From: a virus
Taxonomy: Duplodnaviria > Heunggongvirae > Uroviricota > Caudoviricetes
DNA length: 52,416 bases
IMG/VR virus record: IMGVR_UViG_2896589216_000005
Direction: 5' to 3' (one strand)
A program made the position numbers and the translations under genes. Shown here piece by piece: positions 43,313 to 52,416 of this stretch; within the stretch, counting starts at the first letter, position 1; every line of letters starts with the position of its first letter. Below the pieces are notes generated by a model. The model did not search any database. It was given only the letters and a program-made list of their open reading frames with translations, and was not told the origin of the DNA.

Positions 43313-46300
43313 ATGGGTAAAGGAAGCAGTAAGGGGCATACCCCGCGCGAAGCGAAGGACAACCTGAAATCCACGCAATTACTGAGTGTGATCGATGCCA
43401 TCAGCGAAGGGCCGATTGAAGGTCCGGTGGATGGATTAAAAAGCGTGCTGCTGAACAGTACACCGGTGCTGGACAGTGAGGGGAATACCAACATCTCCGG
43501 TGTTACGGTGGTGTTCCGGGCAGGTGAGCAGGAGCAGACACCGCCGGAGGGATTTGAATCCTCCGGTTCCGAGACGGTGCTGGGTACGGAAGTGAAATAC
43601 GACACGCCGATCACCCGGACCATCACGTCTGCAAACATCGACCGTCTGCGCTTTACCTTCGGTGTGCAGGCACTGGTGGAAACCACCTCAAAGGGTGACA
43701 GGAATCCGTCGGAAGTCCGCCTGCTGGTTCAGATACAACGTAACGGTGGCTGGGTGACGGAAAAAGACATCACCATTAAGGGCAAAACCACCTCGCAGTA
43801 TCTGGCCTCGGTGGTGGTGGGTAACCTGCCGCCGCGCCCGTTTAATATCCGGATGCGCAGGATGACGCCGGACAGCACCACAGACCAGCTGCAGAACAAA
43901 ACGCTCTGGTCGTCATACACTGAAATCATCGATGTGAAACAGTGCTACCCGAACACGGCACTGGTCGGCGTGCAGGTGGACTCGGAACAGTTCGGCAGCC
44001 AGCAGGTGAGCCGTAATTATCATCTTCGCGGGCGCATTCTGCAGGTGCCATCGAACTATAACCCGCAGACGCGGCAATACAGCGGTATCTGGGACGGGAC
44101 GTTTAAACCGGCATACAGCAACAACATGGCATGGTGTCTGTGGGATATGCTGACCCACCCGCGCTACGGCATGGGGAAACGTCTTGGTGCGGCGGATGTG
44201 GACAAATGGGCGCTGTATGTCATCGGCCAGTATTGCGATCAGTCAGTGCCGGATGGCTTTGGTGGCACGGAGCCGCGCATCACCTGTAACGCTTACCTGA
44301 CCACACAGCGTAAGGCGTGGGATGTGCTCAGTGATTTCTGTTCGGCGATGCGCTATATGCCGGTATGGAACGGGCAGACGCTGACGTTCGTGCAGGACCG
44401 ACCGTCGGATAAGGTGTGGACCTATAACCGCAGTAATGTGGTGATGCCGGATGATGGCGCGCCGTTCCGCTACAGCTTCAGCGCCCTGAAGGACCGCCAT
44501 AATGCCGTTGAGGTGAACTGGATTGACCCGGATAACGGCTGGGAGACGGCGACAGAGCTTGTTGAAGATACGCAGGCCATTGCCCGTTACGGTCGTAACG
44601 TCACGAAGATGGATGCCTTTGGCTGTACCAGCCGGGGGCAGGCACACCGCGCCGGGCTGTGGCTGATTAAAACGGAGCTGCTGGAAACGCAGACCGTGGA
44701 CTTCAGCGTGGGTGCAGAAGGGCTTCGCCATGTACCGGGCGATGTCATTGAAATCTGTGATGATGACTATGCGGGTATCAGCATCGGCGGGCGCGTGCTG
44801 GCGGTGAACAGCCAGACGCGGACACTGACGCTCGACCGTGAAATCACGCTGCCATCCTCCGGCACCACGCTGATAAGCCTGGTTGACGGACAGGGGAATC
44901 CGGTCAGCGTGGAGGTCCAGTCCGTCACCGACGGCGTGAAGGTGAAAGTGAGCCGTGTTCCTGACGGCGTTGCCGAATACAGCGTGTGGGGGCTGAAGCT
45001 GCCGACGCTGCGCCAGCGCCTGTTCCGCTGCGTGAGTATCCGTGAGAACGATGACGGCACGTATGCCATCACCGCCGTGCAGCATGTACCGGAAAAAGAA
45101 GCCATCGTGGATAACGGGGCGCACTTTGACGGCGACCAGAGCGGCACGGTGAATGGTGTCACGCCGCCAGCGGTGCAGCACCTGACTGCCGAAGTCACCG
45201 CAGACAGCGGGGAGTATCAGGTACTGGCCCGCTGGGACACGCCGAAGGTGGTGAAGGGCGTGAGCTTCCTGCTTCGCCTGACCGTGACAGCGGACGATGG
45301 CAGTGAGCGGCTGGTCAGCACGGCCCGGACGACGGAAACCACATACCGCTTCAGGCAGCTGGCGCTGGGGCGTTACATGTTGACGGTCCGGGCGGTAAAT
45401 GCGTGGGGACAGCAGGGCGATCCGGCGTCGGTATCGTTCCGGATTGCCGCACCGGCAGCGCCGTCGCGGATTGAGCTGACGCCGGGCTATTTTCAGATAA
45501 CCGCCACGCCGCATCTTGCCGTTTATGACCCGACGGTACAGTTTGAGTTCTGGTTTTCGGAAAAGCGGATTACCGATATCAGGAAGGTTGAAACCACAGC
45601 GCGCTATCTTGGCACGGGGCTGTACTGGATAGCCGCCAGTATCAATATCAAACCGGGCCATGATTATTATTTTTACGTTCGCAGTGTGAACACCGTTGGC
45701 AAATCGGCATTCGTGGAGGCTGTTGGTCAGCCGAGTGATGATGCATCCGGTTATCTGGATTTTTTCAAAGGCGAGATAGGGAAAACCCATCTGGCTCAGG
45801 AGCTGTGGACGCAGATTGATAAAGGTCAGCTTGCGCCTGACCTGGCTGAAATCAGGACGTCCATTACGGATGTCAGCAATGAAATCACGCAGACTGTCAA
45901 TAAGAAACTGAAAGACCAGAGTGCGGCAATCCAGCAGATACAGAAGGTTCAGGTTGATACAAATAATAATCTGAACAGCATGTGGGCTGTGAAGCTGCAA
46001 CAGATGAAGGACGGACGCCTTTATATTGCGGGTATCGGTGCCGGTATTGAGAATACGCCAGCAGGAATGCAGAGTCAGGTGCTGCTGGCGGCAGACAGGA
46101 TTGCGATGATTAATCCTGCGAATGGCAACACAAAGCCGATGTTTGTTGGTCAGGGCGATCAGATATTCATGAACGACGTGTTCCTGAAACGCCTGACGGC
46201 TCCCACCATTACCAGCGGCGGTGATCCTCCGGCATTTTCCCTGACACCGGACGGGCGGCTGACGGCGAAAAATGCCGATATTAGCGGTAACGTGAATGCG

Positions 46301-46792
46301 AACTCCGGGACGCTCAACAACGTCACGATTAACGAGAACTGTCGGGTTCTGGGAAAACTGTCCGCCAACCAGATTGAAGGCGATCTCGTTAAAACAGTGG
46401 GCAAAGCTTTCCCCCGGGACTCCCGTGCACCGGAGCGGTGGCCATCAGGGACCATTACCGTCAGGGTTTATGACGATCAGCCGTTTGACCGGCAAATTGT
46501 TATTCCGGCGGTGGCATTCAGTGGCGCTAAGCATGAGAGAGAGCATACTGATATTTACTCCTCATGCCGTCTGATAGTGCGGAAAAACGGTGCTGAAATT
46601 TATAACCGTACCGCGCTGGATAATACGCTGATTTACAGTGGCGTTATTGATATGCCTGCCGGTCACGGTCACATGACACTGGAGTTTTCGGTGTCAGCAT
46701 GGCTGGTAAATAACTGGTATCCCACAGCAAGTATCAGCGATTTGCTGGTTGTGGTGATGAAGAAAGCCACTACAGGCATCACGATTAGCTGA
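43313..46792 (+). CDS. J: Central tail fiber / host specificity protein J
   Basis: 1159-aa ORF collinear with lambda gpJ. Confidence 0.95.
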
Positions 46793-46859: not shown

Positions 46860-47459
46860 ATGCGTAAATTATGTGCTGTTATTCTGTCCGCAGTAGTCTG
46901 GCTGGTTGCCGCTGGTATGCCAGCGAGCGCAGCAGAGCATCAGTCCACACTAAGCGCCGGGTATCTTCAGACCCATACTGATATGCCAGGCAGCGATGAT
47001 CTGAACGGGATTAACGTGAAATACCGTTATGAGTTTACGGACACGCTGGGGCTGGTGACGTCATTCAGTTATGCCAATGCCAAAGATGAGCAAAAAACGC
47101 ATTACAGCGATACCCGCTGGCATGAAGATTCCGTGCGTAACCGCTGGTTCAGCGTGATGGCGGGGCCGTCTGTGCGCGTGAATGAATGGTTCAGCGCGTA
47201 TGCGATGGCGGGTGTGACTTACAGTCGTGTGTCGACTTTTTCCGGGGATTATCTCCGTGTAACTGACAGCAAGGGGAAAACGCACGATGTGCTGACCGGA
47301 AGTGATGACGGTCGCCACAGCAACACGTCTCTGGCGTGGGGGGCTGGCGTGCAGTTTAACCCGACCGAATCCGTGGCCATTGATATTGCTTATGAAGGCT
47401 CCGGCAGTGGTGACTGGCGTACCAACAGTTTCATCGTTGGTGTCGGCTATAAATTCTGA
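46860..47459 (+). CDS. lom: Outer membrane protein Lom (Ail/PagC family)
   Basis: 199-aa ORF with signal peptide; near-collinear with lambda Lom. Confidence 0.9.
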   Translation: MRKLCAVILSAVVWLVAAGMPASAAEHQSTLSAGYLQTHTDMPGSDDLNGINVKYRYEFTDTLGLVTSFSYANAKDEQKTHYSDTRWHEDSVRNRWFSVMAGPSVRVNEWFSAYAMAGVTYSRVSTFSGDYLRVTDSKGKTHDVLTGSDDGRHSNTSLAWGAGVQFNPTESVAIDIAYEGSGSGDWRTNSFIVGVGYKF

Positions 47460-47523: not shown

Positions 47524-50499
47524 ATGGCAGTACTGATTTCAGGTGTACTGAAAGATGGTGCAGGTAAGCCGATACAAAACTGCACCATTCAGCTAAAGGC
47601 CAGGCGCAACAGCACCACGGTGGTGGTGAACACAGTGGCCTCAGAAAATCCGGATGAAGCCGGGCGTTATACAATGGACGTCGAGTATGGTCAGTACAGC
47701 GTCAGTCTGTTGGTGGAGGGATTCCCGCCGTCACACGCCGGGATTATCACCGTATATGAGGACTCAAAGCCGGGCACACTGAATGATTTCCTCGGTGCAA
47801 TGACGGAGGATGATGTCCGGCCAGAGGCACTGCGCCGTTTTGAACTGATGGTGGAAGAGGTGGCGCGTAACGCGTCCGCAGTGGCACAGAACACGGCAGC
47901 CGCGAAGAAGTCAGCCAGCGATGCCCGCACATCAGCCCGTGAGGCGGCAACCCATGCGACTGATGCTGCAGGCTCAGCACGCGCAGCCAGCACGTCAGCC
48001 GGACAGGCCGCGTCGTCGGCTCAGTCAGCGTCTTCCAGCGCAGGAGCGGCATCAACAAAGGCCAGTGAAGCATCGAAAAGTGCTGCTGCTGCAGAGTCCT
48101 CAAAAAGCGCGGCAGCTACCAGTGCCAGTGCCGCGAAAACGTCAGAAACGAATGCGGCAGCGTCACAACAATCAGCAGCCACTTCTGCATCCACCGCGAC
48201 CACGAAAGCGTCAGAAGCAGCCACTTCAGCACGGGATGCGTCGGCTTCAAAAGAGGCGGCAAAATCATCAGAAACGAACGCAGCCTCGAGCGCCAGCAGC
48301 GCAGCTTCCTCGGCAACGGCGGCAGCAAATTCTGCGAAGGCGGCAAAAACGTCCGAGACGAACGCCAGGTCTTCTGAAACGGCAGCGGGACAGAGCGCCT
48401 CAGCTGCGGCAGACTCAAAAACAGCGGCTGCATTATCTGCCAGTGCCGCGTCAACAAGTGCCGGGCAGGCCTCAGCCAGTGCCACCGCCGCCGGAAAATC
48501 GGCAGAAAGTGCTGCATCGTCTGCTTCAACAGCCACAACGAAGGCTGGCGAAGCCGCTGTACTGGCCAGCGCAGCAGCGAGGTCTGCTTCCGCAGCGAAG
48601 ACATCCGAGACGAACGCGAAAGCGTCGGAAACCAGCGCAGAATCCTCAAAAACGGCTGCCGCATCGTCCGCCAGTTCGGCGGCGTCATCGGCATCATCTG
48701 CGTCTGCTTCAAAAGATGAGGCGACCAGACAGGCGTCAGCAGCAAAGGGCAGCGCCACGACGGCATCCACGAAGGCGACAGAGGCAGCTGGCAGTGCGAC
48801 GGCGGCAGCTCAGAGCAAAAGTACGGCGGAATCCGCGGCAACGCGCGCTGAGACAGCGGCAAAACGGGCAGAGGATATTGCATCCGCCGTGGCGCTTGAG
48901 GATGCGAGCACGACGAAAAAGGGGATAGTACAGCTCAGCAGTGCGACTAACAGCACTTCCGAGTCACTGGCGGCAACGCCAAAAGCCGTTAAGGCCGCGT
49001 ATGAGCTGGCTAACGGGAAATACACCGCACAGGATGCAACGACAGCACAGAAAGGGATAGTTCAGCTTAGCAACGCGACCAACAGCACATCTGAAATGCT
49101 GGCGGCAACGCCAAAGTCGGTAAAGGCAGCCTATGACCTTGCTAACGGGAAATATACTGCTCAGGACGCTACGACAGCACAAAAAGGAATTGTCCAGCTC
49201 AGTAGTGCAACCAACAGCGCATCTGAAACGCTTGCCGCGACACCGAAAGCAGTGAAAGCAGCTAATGATAATGCGAATGGTCGGGTACCTTCTGCCCGTA
49301 AGGTGAATGGTAAGGCGCTTTCAGCGGATATAACACTGACGCCGAAAGATATTGGTACGCTTAACTCAACAACAATGTCATTCAGCGGTGGTGCTGGTTG
49401 GTTCAAATTAGCAACGGTAACCATGCCACAGGCGAGTTCTGTTGTTTCAATTACGTTGATTGGTGGTGCGGGATTTAACGTGGGGTCACCTCAACAGGCA
49501 GGTATATCTGAACTTGTTTTGCGTGCAGGTAATGGTAATCCGAAGGGGATTACTGGTGCTTTATGGCAGCGCACATCGACAGGGTTTACAAATTTTGCCT
49601 GGGTCAATACATCTGGTGATACTTACGATATTTACGTTGCAATCGGAAATTATGCGACTGGTGTAAATATTCAATGGGATTATACCAGTAATGCCAGCGT
49701 GACGATTCATACGTCACCAGCATATTCTGCTAATAAGCCGGAAGGGTTAACGGACGGTACAGTTTATGCACTCTATACGCCATCAGAGCAGTTTTATCCG
49801 CCTGGCGCACCAATCCCGTGGCCATCAGATACCGTTCCGTCTGGCTATGCCCTGATGCAGGGGCAGACTTTTGACAAATCTGCATACCCGAAACTTGCAG
49901 CCGCTTATCCGTCAGGCGTGATCCCTGATATGCGTGGCTGGACGATTAAGGGCAAACCCGCCAGTGGTCGTGCCGTATTGTCTCAGGAACAGGACGGCAT
50001 TAAATCGCACACCCACAGCGCCAGCGCATCCAGTACGGATTTGGGGACGAAAAACACATCGTCGTTTGATTACGGAACCAAATCCACGAATAACACCGGG
50101 GCGCATACGCACAGTCTGAGTGGCTCTACGGGGTCTGCCGGTGATCATACTCATGGTAATGGTATTCGTTGGCCAGGAGGCGGCGGTTCTGCGTTAGCAT
50201 TTTATGATGGCGGTGGGTTCACTTATGTCCAGGATTCACAGTATCAAGTAAGCCCGGGGACTTCTTCCCGTAGATCGTATTATCAACGTATTCAGACACA
50301 GTCAGCAGGTGCTCATACCCACTCGCTGTCTGGTACTGCAGCAAGTTCTGGCGCACATGCACATACTGTAGGTATTGGTGCGCATACGCACTCCGTTGCG
50401 ATTGGTTCACATGGACACACCATCACCGTTAACGCTGCTGGTAACGCGGAAAACACCGTCAAAAACATCGCATTTAACTATATTGTGAGGCTTGCATAA
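47524..50499 (+). CDS. stf: Side tail fiber Stf with Ala/Ser-rich low-complexity shaft and C-terminal HxH repeats
   Basis: N-terminus matches lambda Stf; C-terminal GAHTHS/HAHT repeats typical of phage fiber tips. Confidence 0.9.
48910..49280 (+). repeat. Three tandem 123-bp repeats inside stf (41-aa unit [39 protein letters not shown])
   Basis: Repeat units visible directly in DNA and protein. Confidence 0.65.
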
Positions 50500-51083
50500 T
50501 GGCATTCAGAATGAGTGAACAAGCACGGACCATAAAAATTTATAATCTGCTGGCCGGAACTAATGAATTTATTGGTGAAGGTGACGCATATATTCCGCCT
50601 CATACAGGTCTGCCAGCAAACAGTACCGATATTGCACCACCAGATATTCCTGCTGGCTTTGTGGCTGTTTTCAACAGTGATGAGGCATCGTGGCATCTCG
50701 TTGAAGACCATCGGGGTAAAACGGTTTATGACGTAGCGTCAGGGGACGAGTTATTTATTTCTGAACTCGGTCCGTTACCGGAAAATGTTACCTGGTTATC
50801 GCCGGAAGGGGAGTTTCAGAAGTGGAACGGCACAGCCTGGGTGAAGGATACGGAAGCAGAAAAAATGTTCCGGATCCGGGAGGCGGAAGAAACAAAAAAC
50901 AACCTGATGCAGGTAGCCAGTGAGCATATTGCGCCGCTTCAGGATGCTGCAGATCTGGAAATTGCAACGGAGGAAGAAACCTCATTGCTGGAAGCCTGGA
51001 AAAAGTATCGGGTGTTGCTGAACCGTGTTGATACATCAACTGCACCTGATATTGAGTGGCCTACGAACCCTGTCAGGGAGTAA
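50499..51083 (+). CDS. tfa: Tail fiber assembly protein Tfa
   Basis: 194-aa ORF near-identical in pattern to lambda Tfa; start overlaps the stf stop (TAATG). Confidence 0.92.
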
Positions 51084-51097
51084 TCATTGGGATTATG

Positions 51098-51147
51098 CCG
51101 CAGCACGTCTTAAGCAAGAACGTGCTGCGGTTGGATGCTATTTTTTC
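51098..51147. terminator. Bidirectional hairpin between convergent tfa and the methyltransferase gene
   Basis: 11-bp stem CCGCAGCACGT/ACGTGCTGCGG followed by a T-run. Confidence 0.4.
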
Positions 51148-51806
51148 CCTGAAGCGGAAAACATTACTACAGTACCTTGAACCTTGGTTTTAACATTCTC
51201 GAAATGCTCTGAGAGTATATGTGTTAAGCCTTCTTCGGAATCTTTTGTGTTTGAAAAGATGCCTTTCTGATTGTAAATGCGCATCAGTTTTTGACCGAAG
51301 CTATTGTGCACAACTCCATCGCCAAGAATTGTGGCTCCGTATAGAGTTCCATCGTCAGTTAAGGCCTGCGCCGCATTGCGTATTACACAGCTTTTTGTAG
51401 ATATATTTCCAGGCAGGCAGTGAAGAAGGTAAAACATGGAAATGGAATCAAATTGACCATGTAACGCCGCGGGATAAGGTTCAAAAACATCATGGCTAAT
51501 TTTATGTTTAATTTTTGATTCCCCAGCCCTTGTAGATGCCGCGTTCAGGCTAGCTTCGTTCAAATCCATTAAAGATATCAGACTACTCTCAGGTACGTGA
51601 GTAAGGTAAAACCCAGTTCCAACACCAATATCCAGATGGTTGTTACCTACATGTTCCAGAAAGTGTGGAAGAAGGTGTTCCTTTGTAGGACATCCCCATG
51701 CAAGCCGATTTGATACTCCCAAAACCCACCAGTCATAAAGCTTTAGGGTAAGTGGTGTGTAAATTTTAGCCCCATCATCTGTGTTTTTTTTCATTGATTT
51801 CACCAT
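51138..51806 (-). CDS. Class I SAM-dependent methyltransferase (moron)
   Basis: 222-aa ORF with motif I LDIGVGTGFY; lower GC than flanks; opposite strand to the tail genes. Confidence 0.7.
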   Translation of the reverse strand: MVKSMKKNTDDGAKIYTPLTLKLYDWWVLGVSNRLAWGCPTKEHLLPHFLEHVGNNHLDIGVGTGFYLTHVPESSLISLMDLNEASLNAASTRAGESKIKHKISHDVFEPYPAALHGQFDSISMFYLLHCLPGNISTKSCVIRNAAQALTDDGTLYGATILGDGVVHNSFGQKLMRIYNQKGIFSNTKDSEEGLTHILSEHFENVKTKVQGTVVMFSASGKK

Positions 51807-51862
51807 GTTATAGTTTTATTTGTGAATTAAATCAATTATGGCGATGAATTACAAGGGGTTAA

Positions 51863-52183
51863 ATGCTGCCGCAGCATAGCGATATTGAAATAGCCTGGTA
51901 TGCTTCGATACAGCAGGAGCCGAATGGCTGGAAGACCGCCACCACACAGTTCTACATCCAGGAATTCAGTGAGTATATTGCGCCACTGCAGGATGCTGTA
52001 GATCTGGAAATCGCAACGGAGGAAGAAAGATCGTTGCTGGAGGCATGGAATAAATATCGGGTATTGTTGAATCGTGTTGATACATCAACTGCACCGATAT
52101 TGAGTGGCCTGCAAATCCTGTCAGGGAGTAATCATTGGGATTATGCCGCAGACACGTCGTATGCAGGAACGTGCTGCGGTTAG
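51863..52183 (+). pseudogene. Second, partial tfa-like 3-prime copy with a 1-bp deletion
   Basis: About 210 bp near-identical to the tfa 3-prime end ([37 protein letters not shown]); GCACCGATATT versus GCACCTGATATT shifts the frame. Confidence 0.6.
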
Positions 52184-52416
52184 TTTGTGAGCTTTCGATA
52201 GTGGTTGTTATTTTTGCCCTTATTTGTTCCGGAGGCCATGGTTCAATGGTCCGTCTGCCCCCTGTGGTGATGTCAGCAAAATCAGCCACTGCGCGAACCA
52301 CAATAGCCCGGGAAGATGCTGAAGATCACCAGGTAAAGCTGTCAGCGCAGAAACTGGAAGAACTGCTCGCATCAATGGTTAAGGATGAGGTTGATCGCAA
52401 TGATGGGATTTATTGA
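52135..52416 (+). CDS. Hypothetical small ORF at the window edge
   Basis: ORF only; possible start MVRLPP...; no recognisable family. Confidence 0.2.

Follow-up and report, generated by a model that had tools for sequence, protein, structure and literature searches.

Organisation of the locus

We describe here the right-hand end of a 52,416-nucleotide stretch of DNA from a tailed virus (Caudoviricetes; IMG/VR record IMGVR_UViG_2896589216_000005), called the window throughout, and in particular a methyltransferase gene of the ybcY type that lies on the minus strand between two direct copies of the 3′ end of a tail fibre assembly gene, tfa. Open reading frames (ORFs) for int and for head, tail and fibre proteins are found across the window and, according to the ORF list and Pfam, its end is the right arm of a lambda-like prophage. 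Positions are those of the window unless another locus is named.

On the plus strand, the ORF list and Pfam place J at 43313-46792, lom at 46860-47459 and the side tail fibre gene stf at 47524-50499. They are followed by an intact tfa of 194 amino acids (50499-51083, plus strand), which is matched by Pfam Caudo_TAP (1.3e-44), corresponds to a gene annotated in strain UTI89 as a tail fiber assembly protein and is the final gene of the late operon in the present prophage. Repeat finding and pairwise alignment show that its last 165 nt and the 49 nt after its stop codon form the first copy of a direct repeat (50919-51132, plus strand). Within these 49 nt, and thus between the convergent tfa and ybcY, folding reveals a hairpin (CCGCAGCACGT, a loop of 11 nt and ACGTGCTGCGG; 51098-51130).

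The gene ybcY itself occupies 51138-51794 on the minus strand and encodes a class I S-adenosylmethionine (SAM)-dependent methyltransferase of 218 amino acids, as judged from Pfam, PHROG and its homologues; RefSeq gives 222 amino acids, from an ATG at 51806. Its 5′ region (51795-51862, minus strand), as read from a promoter scan, a match to K-12 data from genomic systematic evolution of ligands by exponential enrichment (SELEX) and an Enterobacter alignment, contains a GGTGA Shine-Dalgarno sequence and candidate sigma-70 hexamers, and diverges from the ORF of a tfa relic, tfaX′. This relic (51863-52131, plus strand; Pfam, tblastn and phrog_2341) is an 89-codon ORF when in frame; it is frameshifted here, and the ORF is read on to 52183. 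It contains most of the second repeat copy (51968-52181, plus strand), whose hairpin, at 52146-52179, is degraded according to alignment and folding. Finally, the start of a further dead fragment of the DUF4376 type, with its N-terminus missing and an internal stop, extends from 52228 to 52416 on the plus strand, as indicated by the UTI89 RefSeq annotation and by the sequence.

Identity and occurrence of the module

The tfa-ybcY-tfa′ sandwich is already known, as it has been annotated for decades in the DLP12 prophage of Escherichia coli K-12. The order there is nohD, a terminase fragment, a tail fibre assembly fragment (tfaD, or ybcX), a frameshifted ybcY, a second tail fibre assembly fragment (tfaX, or ylcE), appY and ompT. 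Between 50645 and 52108 of the window, both sequences share 96.9% DNA identity with equal gene order and orientation. We estimate at roughly 80% the probability that we are dealing with the ybcY module, a moron of lambdoid prophages in E. coli, located at the standard right-hand boundary of their side-tail-fibre genes. Its identification together with the evolutionary reading given below is very probably correct.

The module is common. A 730-nt segment of ybcY DNA is present at an identity of at least 98% in 3,836 of 5,426 complete E. coli genomes; within the same collection, the left junction (tfa end, hairpin and ybcY 3′ end) was found in 3,066 and the right one (ybcY 5′ end and tfaX′) in 3,442. 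The complete 2-kb configuration occurs in 1,113 genomes, including those of UTI89, S88 and APEC O1. The UTI89 prophage has its end in ompW, with yciE-yciF-yciG and trp as neighbours. Among sequenced lambdoid phages, 14 carry ybcY (for instance ev243, 2G7b, Turner, Kati and the PhiR series). Structurally, then, there is nothing new in the locus: the cassette is found in K-12 and in most E. coli, and tfa ends prone to recombination were described twenty years ago.

A ybcY segment of 98.9% identity also appears in a plasmid record of Bacillus thuringiensis CT-43 (HM037272.1), most likely as E. coli contamination or a cloning artefact. In stf, positions 48899-49294 consist of three tandem 132-nt units (Phage_fiber_2 repeats). 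The stf of the otherwise near-identical UTI89 prophage (L001 4993-8100) is 132 nt longer (3108 versus 2976 nt), which suggests, from the two sequences, that the number of repeats has changed between sister prophages.

The methyltransferase gene and its product

The initial annotation had read the minus-strand ORF at 51138-51806 (222 amino acids) as a class I SAM-dependent methyltransferase, and Pfam agrees: Methyltransf_12, Methyltransf_23, Methyltransf_25 and Methyltransf_11 all score above their cut-offs (37.5 bits against a cut-off of 30 for Methyltransf_12). Translation probably starts at the second ATG, at 51794, giving 218 amino acids, because the homologues and PHROG 2132 are 218 residues long, the Enterobacter homologue has AAG in place of the first ATG and the GGTGA motif precedes the second one. 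The low GC content described for the gene was also found, at 41.2% (35.6% at third codon positions) versus 51.9% for the window and 56.3% for J.

The protein belongs to the YbcY family (RefSeq WP_000240999-type), as it matches phrog_2132 with E = 3.9e-157 over residues 1-218 of 218; this group is listed in PHROGs as being of “unknown function”. The gene is 100% identical to the UTI89 allele and shares 99.4% nucleotide identity with the K-12 ybcY coding region, and its product is identical to a cluster of the intact 222-residue protein with 6,589 member sequences (P0002). More broadly, the family is compact: a search of 1.84 billion proteins gave 411 cluster representatives at E ≤ 1e-30. Alignment of 32 homologues revealed an invariant motif I (LDIGVGTG), D77 at the end of strand beta-2, H101-D102 and, in beta-4, D116-S117 (the DS-S motif), together with the family-specific motifs YDWWV, AWxC, LHCLPG and YNxKGIFxN. 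The AlphaFold model has alternating strands and helices, a mean predicted local distance difference test score (pLDDT) of 91.7 and a predicted template modelling score (pTM) of 0.88. Motif I, the acidic residue of beta-2 and the fold, that is, the features of class I enzymes, are all present and, judged by its sequence and modelled structure, YbcY appears to be an intact Rossmann-fold SAM-dependent methyltransferase.

Transcription and accessory status

On the minus strand, the candidate sigma-70 promoter of ybcY consists of TTGATT (51835-51830), a 17-nt spacer and TATAAC (51812-51807), and the promoter scan gave a second candidate further upstream (TTAACC, 16 nt, CATAAT; 51862-51835). The same hexamers as those of the first candidate were assigned to ybcY of K-12 when constitutive RpoD promoters were mapped by genomic SELEX, and an H-NS site was placed in the K-12 ybcY/tfaX spacer (PMC3946193). 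By analogy with what has been reported for this orthologue, ybcY would have a sigma-70 promoter of its own, active irrespective of lytic growth and directed against the late operon, and its expression would probably be damped by H-NS.

The initial annotation had located the gene in a region where lambdoid phages keep accessory genes, or morons. We reach the same view: ybcY lies on the opposite strand, its GC content is low and, in lambda, ea47 occupies the same place with the same orientation. Likewise, two observations that would have spoken for a core gene followed by an ordinary fibre cassette were not made, as only 14 phage records contain ybcY versus 159 with a related Tfa C-terminus, lambda having ea47 in the slot, and no stf follows the second tfa copy. 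The base composition also differs from that of the surrounding phage genes, and the candidate sigma-70 hexamers, identical to those of K-12, and a strong hairpin after the stop codon, albeit one without a U-tract, may represent a promoter and a terminator belonging to the gene. The status of ybcY as an accessory rather than a core gene is therefore supported by its sequence context, in particular by its strand and its low GC content.

Possible functions of YbcY

According to the initial annotation, the substrate could not be told from the sequence. This holds insofar as no substrate can be named, but a class is favoured. The closest structural relatives of YbcY in fold comparison act on small molecules or lipids, and sequence-profile searches of the PDB retrieved JHAMT and UbiG as the best matches. 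We lean, with modest confidence, towards a role in which YbcY would methylate a small molecule or a lipid in the lysogen, the target being a cellular or environmental compound. Neither gene neighbourhoods nor domain fusions narrow this down further: the Salmonella, Enterobacter, Yersinia and Aeromonas homologues are lone genes in unrelated contexts (those of Aeromonas adjoin transposases), and among distant relatives there is no informative fusion partner, one protein being fused to RCC1 and others carrying extensions without a recognised domain.

An observation from B2 and uropathogenic E. coli (UPEC) strains touches on the question of whether the enzyme is of use to its host. At the argU tRNA site of such strains, a DLP12-like prophage has been cut to int′, tfa′, an intact ybcY of 218 amino acids and ompT, with no tfaX′ stump; examples are E. 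coli FY10 (L020 2382-5359) and UPEC 26-1 (L021 2377-5359). According to the annotation, ybcY and ompT alone are intact between int′ and ybcH in these remnants. The location of ybcY next to ompT in UPEC strains has also been noted in the literature (PMC6854850). The retention of ybcY in B2/UPEC strains is one hint of usefulness. It is conceivable, although we regard it as a tentative proposal, that YbcY has been domesticated for the benefit of the host, in which it would modify or detoxify a lipid of the membrane, a quinone or a toxic metabolite of exogenous origin. If this were true, it would account for the continued spread of ybcY by lambdoid phages and for its presence in about 70% of E. 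coli genomes, as well as for its intact survival beside ompT in B2/UPEC strains after the loss of the DLP12-like prophage, and it would add a new functionally characterised methyltransferase family with invariant motifs of its own (YDWWV, LHCLPG and YNxKGIFxN). In any case, the remaining value of the locus is biochemical, as it holds an intact and very widespread enzyme that is retained beside a virulence-associated protease, OmpT, in uropathogenic strains.

A number of observations weigh against these readings, or limit them. In K-12, ybcY is a pseudogene: the likely true start has changed from ATG to ATA and an A-run is shorter (L003 7650-7680 versus 51780-51800 of the window), so the gene may, on the evidence of its sequence, be dead by loss of the start codon in addition to the annotated frameshift. 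The promoter hexamers of K-12 ybcY rest on a SELEX peak plus a match to the consensus, and the −10 element abuts the annotated ATG, which would leave a very short leader. Folding and a terminator/promoter scan revealed no canonical U-tract on either strand of the hairpin at 51098-51130, and consequently its role as a terminator is putative. E. coli alleles of ybcY differ at 8 codons at most, which does not allow selection to be estimated through the ratio of nonsynonymous to synonymous substitution rates (dN/dS). In addition, we found no functional or biochemical study of ybcY in the literature that would speak to its activity or phenotype, and a K-12 ybcY mutant had no effect in one assay (PMC2408971). 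As for the substrate, curated NCBIfam cut-offs are missed by a wide margin (RquA, PmtA, UbiG/UbiE, BioC, NodS and CpaM; best scores of 15.7-18 bits versus cut-offs of 175-390), and ten diverse members of the family also fall far below every NCBIfam cut-off, so that the substrate class is deduced from the fold alone.

Some of these points would fit a cassette that is inert debris, with ybcY a passenger decaying like the tfa fragments and kept only because it lies between recombination hot spots beside ompT. The dead K-12 copy, the many pseudogenes of the region, the reported H-NS site, the lack of a known phenotype and an allele diversity too low to show purifying selection are all compatible with such decay. 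We nevertheless consider it unlikely. The ybcY ORF is intact in all eight non-K-12 loci examined, whereas the adjoining tfa relics carry stops, frameshifts or truncations at varied points; the B2 remnants, reduced to about 2 kb of prophage, keep only ybcY and ompT intact according to the annotation; all the catalytic residues that are invariant in the family have been conserved; and the cluster of the intact protein comprises 6,589 members.

Methylation of RNA (tRNA or rRNA) or of a protein is rather improbable. Enzymes of this kind rank below many small-molecule enzymes among the hits of YbcY and none is prominent, there is no RNA-binding extension, the isoelectric point (pI) of 6.9 does not suggest a basic surface, and the top PDB profile matches, JHAMT and UbiG, point elsewhere. 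Orphan DNA methyltransferases are frequent in phages, where many Dam- or Dcm-like morons exist, and YbcY does have a class I SAM-binding fold; still, it is very improbable that ybcY encodes one that would protect the phage genome against restriction or change the host epigenetically, as no [DNS]PP[YFW] or PC motif was found in the protein by regular-expression search, the 218-residue single-domain model leaves no room for a target-recognition domain and no DNA methyltransferase is among the top structural matches listed, all of which make DNA an unlikely substrate as far as sequence and model can tell. The PADLOC defence models gave only a 12.8-bit non-hit for YbcY, and the family is absent from PADLOC. 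A methyltransferase acting on a small molecule or a lipid remains our preferred reading, in line with the structure-based classification, whose nearest folds are those of small-molecule and lipid enzymes.

The repeated end of tfa

The initial annotation had described two direct copies, of about 210 bp, of the 3′ coding end of tfa. The direct copies are present (50907/50919-51132 and 51956/51968-52181, offset by 1049 nt), but the repeated unit is not purely coding, as it extends 49 nt beyond the tfa stop codon (51081-51083) and takes in the hairpin. Identity between the copies amounts to 88.5% in the 227-column alignment (blastn, E = 2e-80) and to 90.1% in its 213 ungapped columns. The 1-bp deletion attributed to the second copy was also recovered: one T is missing between 52095 and 52096 (CACC-GATATT). 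An additional 1-nt insertion affects the hairpin stem of this copy at about 52151. In UTI89, the only other locus read that crosses the site of the deletion in copy 2 (in the rest, homology ends upstream or diverges), both copies have CACCTGATATT; the deletion is absent there and the 89-codon frame of tfaX′ is kept. Among the matches listed, strain B-1109 is the sole genome with 100% identity over 2,017 nt, the others listed having 2,018 nt.

The 67-nt stretch around the hairpin of the first copy folds at −28.5 kcal/mol on the plus strand and at −25.4 kcal/mol on the minus strand, with a z-score of about −4.5, and in lambda one position of the stem is altered on both sides, so that pairing is retained. 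The hairpin probably ends or stabilises the 3′ ends of the tfa and ybcY transcripts. The alignment of lambda tfa with each copy includes the stop codon and the hairpin, right after which homology ends. Since ea47 comes next in lambda, the repeated unit is the ordinary right-hand boundary of a lambdoid side-fibre module.

The differences between the copies reveal their origin. There are 18 of them at coding positions, 13 in third codon positions, and the affected codons are synonymous in 11 cases and non-synonymous in 5. Moreover, copy 1 is as distant from copy 2 (90.1% identity) as from the lambda tfa end (90.2%). Mainly third-position changes and an equal distance to lambda indicate, as far as can be read from the sequences, that the two tfa ends are distinct working alleles that diverged under selection and that copy 2 was left behind by a fibre cassette that has since been replaced. 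It is hardly credible that the tfa end was duplicated locally, in tandem, in the present prophage and that ybcY was inserted afterwards, even though the copies have the same orientation, lie about 1 kb from each other and show about 90% identity, because their differences are mainly synonymous or in third positions, as expected between working alleles, copy 1 is no nearer to copy 2 than to lambda tfa, the sandwich is also found in K-12 DLP12 and both of its junctions in thousands of genomes, and ybcY-tfaX′ is constant in relatives whose upstream fibre cassettes differ.

The part of tfaX′ that is recognisably Tfa comprises codons 27-89, the equivalent of the last 63 residues of a lambda-type Tfa (78-79% identical to that of lambda by tblastn). 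Pfam Caudo_TAP is matched only at profile positions 73-122 of 131, and phrog_2341 is matched as well; the plus-strand ORF as read has 106 codons (51863-52183). With a partial domain, a frame broken by the 1-bp deletion and no stf upstream, tfaX′ does not qualify as a functional Tfa, and the second tfa copy is a dead relic that is not part of a downstream fibre cassette. No full-length Tfa with the first 26 codons of tfaX′ was found among 5.8 billion proteins, all 43 hits being of 89 amino acids or shorter, and the junction between ybcY-derived DNA and tfaX′ (about 51857-51945) has no homology to tfa. As these first codons match no longer protein, the junction is probably, to judge from its sequence, an old illegitimate join. 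Homologous recombination between tfa genes alone could not import a foreign gene. The dead fragment after tfaX′ is annotated as DUF4376 in UTI89 (L001 9830-10099), where the prophage then ends within ompW; a link of this fragment to fibre genes is only a suggestion.

Two annotations that overlap the repeat call for caution. Rfam RF02111 (IS009), a candidate small RNA family, matches copy 1 (50842-51040) with 223.8 bits, above the gathering score of 117, and copy 2 (51886-52089) with 112.1 bits, slightly below it; in K-12, the match lies inside the tfaD′ pseudogene (L003 6710-6908). The family appears to model conserved tfa coding sequence and not a free-standing RNA gene, and because the match falls within coding sequence, membership in it says little about RNA function. 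A 45-codon ORF (51056-51193, plus strand) extends over the stop codon of tfa and the hairpin into the 3′ end of ybcY. RefSeq calls it “hypothetical protein” in UTI89 and “nucleocapsid protein” in K-12 (L003 6924-7061). It is almost certainly a spurious call with a misleading name.

Relatives and history of the module

Comparison with related prophages, which the initial annotation had proposed as a check, returned the sandwich in K-12 DLP12 and breakpoints that vary from one relative to another. On the left, homology with the window is either continuous or begins at 50645 in K-12, whose tfa forms a fusion with part of a terminase gene; at 50963 in ev243, where another fibre cassette lies upstream and a 120-nt tfa stump is kept; at 50967 in the B2 remnants; and between 51092 and 51108 in O157 FRIK2455, Turner, APEC E19025 and 2013C-3250. 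In several relatives, the module has its left edge at the hairpin: the sequences of Turner, APEC E19025, O157 FRIK2455 and 2013C-3250 become homologous again at 51098, 51098, 51092 and 51108, respectively. What precedes ybcY in these genomes is katN-yciEFG (O157 FRIK2455), a Pin-type invertase block (Turner and APEC E19025) or IS1203 (2013C-3250).

On the right, the edge is found at 51889 in the B2 remnants, with ompT directly after it; at 52087 in the ev243 type, where an alpha/beta hydrolase gene and ompT come next; and at 52108 in the K-12 type, which continues with appY and ompT. In UTI89, as in the window, this side is continuous and leads to the DUF4376-annotated fragment and then attR. 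The segment common to every locus examined thus covers about 51108-51889, that is, part of the hairpin, ybcY and its upstream region, and ybcY-tfaX′ is unchanged in relatives with different upstream fibre cassettes.

Two of these layouts deserve a closer description. In O157:H7 FRIK2455 (L011 2594-6979), yciE, yciF, yciG and a manganese catalase gene stand between the prophage tfa and a block composed of hairpin, ybcY, tfaX′, IS66, hydrolase and ompT. The genes yciE, yciF and yciG are the chromosomal neighbours of the prophage end in UTI89, and the arrangement looks like a rearrangement between two prophages at a tfa-end or hairpin sequence. In Turner (L010 3354-5010) and APEC E19025 (L022 1818-3140), a Pin-type invertase gene and small genes similar to ydfK/ynaM lie between tfa and hairpin-ybcY, from which it follows that the module can sit downstream of a fibre region containing an invertase.

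Outside E. coli, homologues of YbcY with 56-68% identity are found in Salmonella, Enterobacter and Yersinia as lone chromosomal genes in non-phage neighbourhoods. A chromosomal Enterobacter homologue shares 69% DNA identity with ybcY from within the coding sequence to about 60 nt upstream, and this upstream homology suggests that the phage gene and its own 5′ region were acquired together from the chromosome of an enterobacterium.

From these comparisons, we infer the following history. A stand-alone enterobacterial methyltransferase gene would have been picked up long ago with about 60 nt of its own upstream sequence and joined non-homologously to an internal part of a tfa gene, of which tfaX′ is the remaining stump. 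Later, homologous recombination at the tfa ends of roughly 200 bp would have swapped fibre cassettes upstream and accessory blocks downstream of the module. The result in the present prophage would be a live tfa, ybcY, a dead tfa end and a dead DUF4376-annotated fragment. The breakpoints of relatives are consistent with recombination across conserved tfa ends, several of the mosaic ones being inside the tfa 3′ sequence or at its hairpin. Furthermore, Poteete et al. 2004 (PMC545071) showed experimentally in K-12 that lambda Red recombines at these roughly 200-bp patches of the tfa 3′ end, which is direct evidence that the repeats are recombination substrates.

Thus, one part of the initial proposal, in which the methyltransferase gene had been captured by recombination between tail fibre assembly genes, is sound: tfa 3′ ends do recombine, as seen in the experiments and breakpoints just cited. 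The other part is not. Because the sandwich is annotated in K-12 DLP12 and its junctions occur in thousands of genomes, no fresh capture took place here, and the present prophage carries an old and widespread module. The locus is better regarded as a neat illustration of how the fibre modules of lambdoid phages are swapped at a conserved boundary, formed by the tfa end and its hairpin, with each exchange leaving a stump, and of how an accessory gene parked at this boundary hitch-hikes through many phages.

Comparison with known systems

Invertible tail-fibre segments, such as G/Gin of Mu, C/Cin of P1 and P/Pin of e14, also have duplicated tfa-type sequences downstream of a fibre gene. In the window, by contrast, the second copy is truncated and there is no alternative fibre tip. 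An invertible segment of the Gin/Cin/Pin type was considered and rejected for this locus, since the repeats are direct and no invertase ORF exists at this end of the window; the only inverted repeat between 46000 and 52416 is one weak 26-nt pair located elsewhere than the ybcY region.

With respect to the enzyme, the relatives of YbcY among the class I methyltransferases that act on small molecules or lipids include JHAMT (7ec0), the phosphatidylethanolamine N-methyltransferase PmtA (8ys9), UbiG (4kdr), Coq5 (4obw), DhpI (3ou2) and BelI (9fce), with identities of only 10-21%. None of them explains the motifs of the YbcY family (YDWWV, AWxC, LHCLPG and YNxKGIFxN).

The morons of lambdoid phages, for instance lom and bor of lambda, offer a closer parallel; those of HK97 and HK022 were reportedly the ones defined by Hendrix and colleagues. 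Like them, ybcY is an extra gene placed between conserved modules, with a candidate promoter, a flanking hairpin and a lower GC content, and it runs counter to the late operon and is missing from many close relatives. Unlike them, it has a putative terminator that is non-canonical, and both its expression from the prophage and its benefit for the host are putative.

The boundary between tfa (orf-194) and ea47 in the b region of lambda resembles the window in having the C-terminal third of tfa, a hairpin after the stop codon and an accessory gene on the opposite strand. The accessory gene differs, as ea47 is found where the window has ybcY, and there is no second tfa stump in the stretch of lambda that was read.

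The nearest counterpart is the tfaD(ybcX)′-ybcY′-tfaX(ylcE)′-appY-ompT region of K-12 DLP12, in which genes, order and orientation are as in the window. Even so, ybcY is intact in the window but has lost its start and is frameshifted in K-12, and the tfa of the window is full-length. DLP12 is integrated at argU, whereas the locus of UTI89, near-identical to that of the window, is at ompW. Finally, the second tfa copy is longer in the window, where it reaches 52181 and includes the hairpin, and a DUF4376 relic is found in place of appY-ompT.

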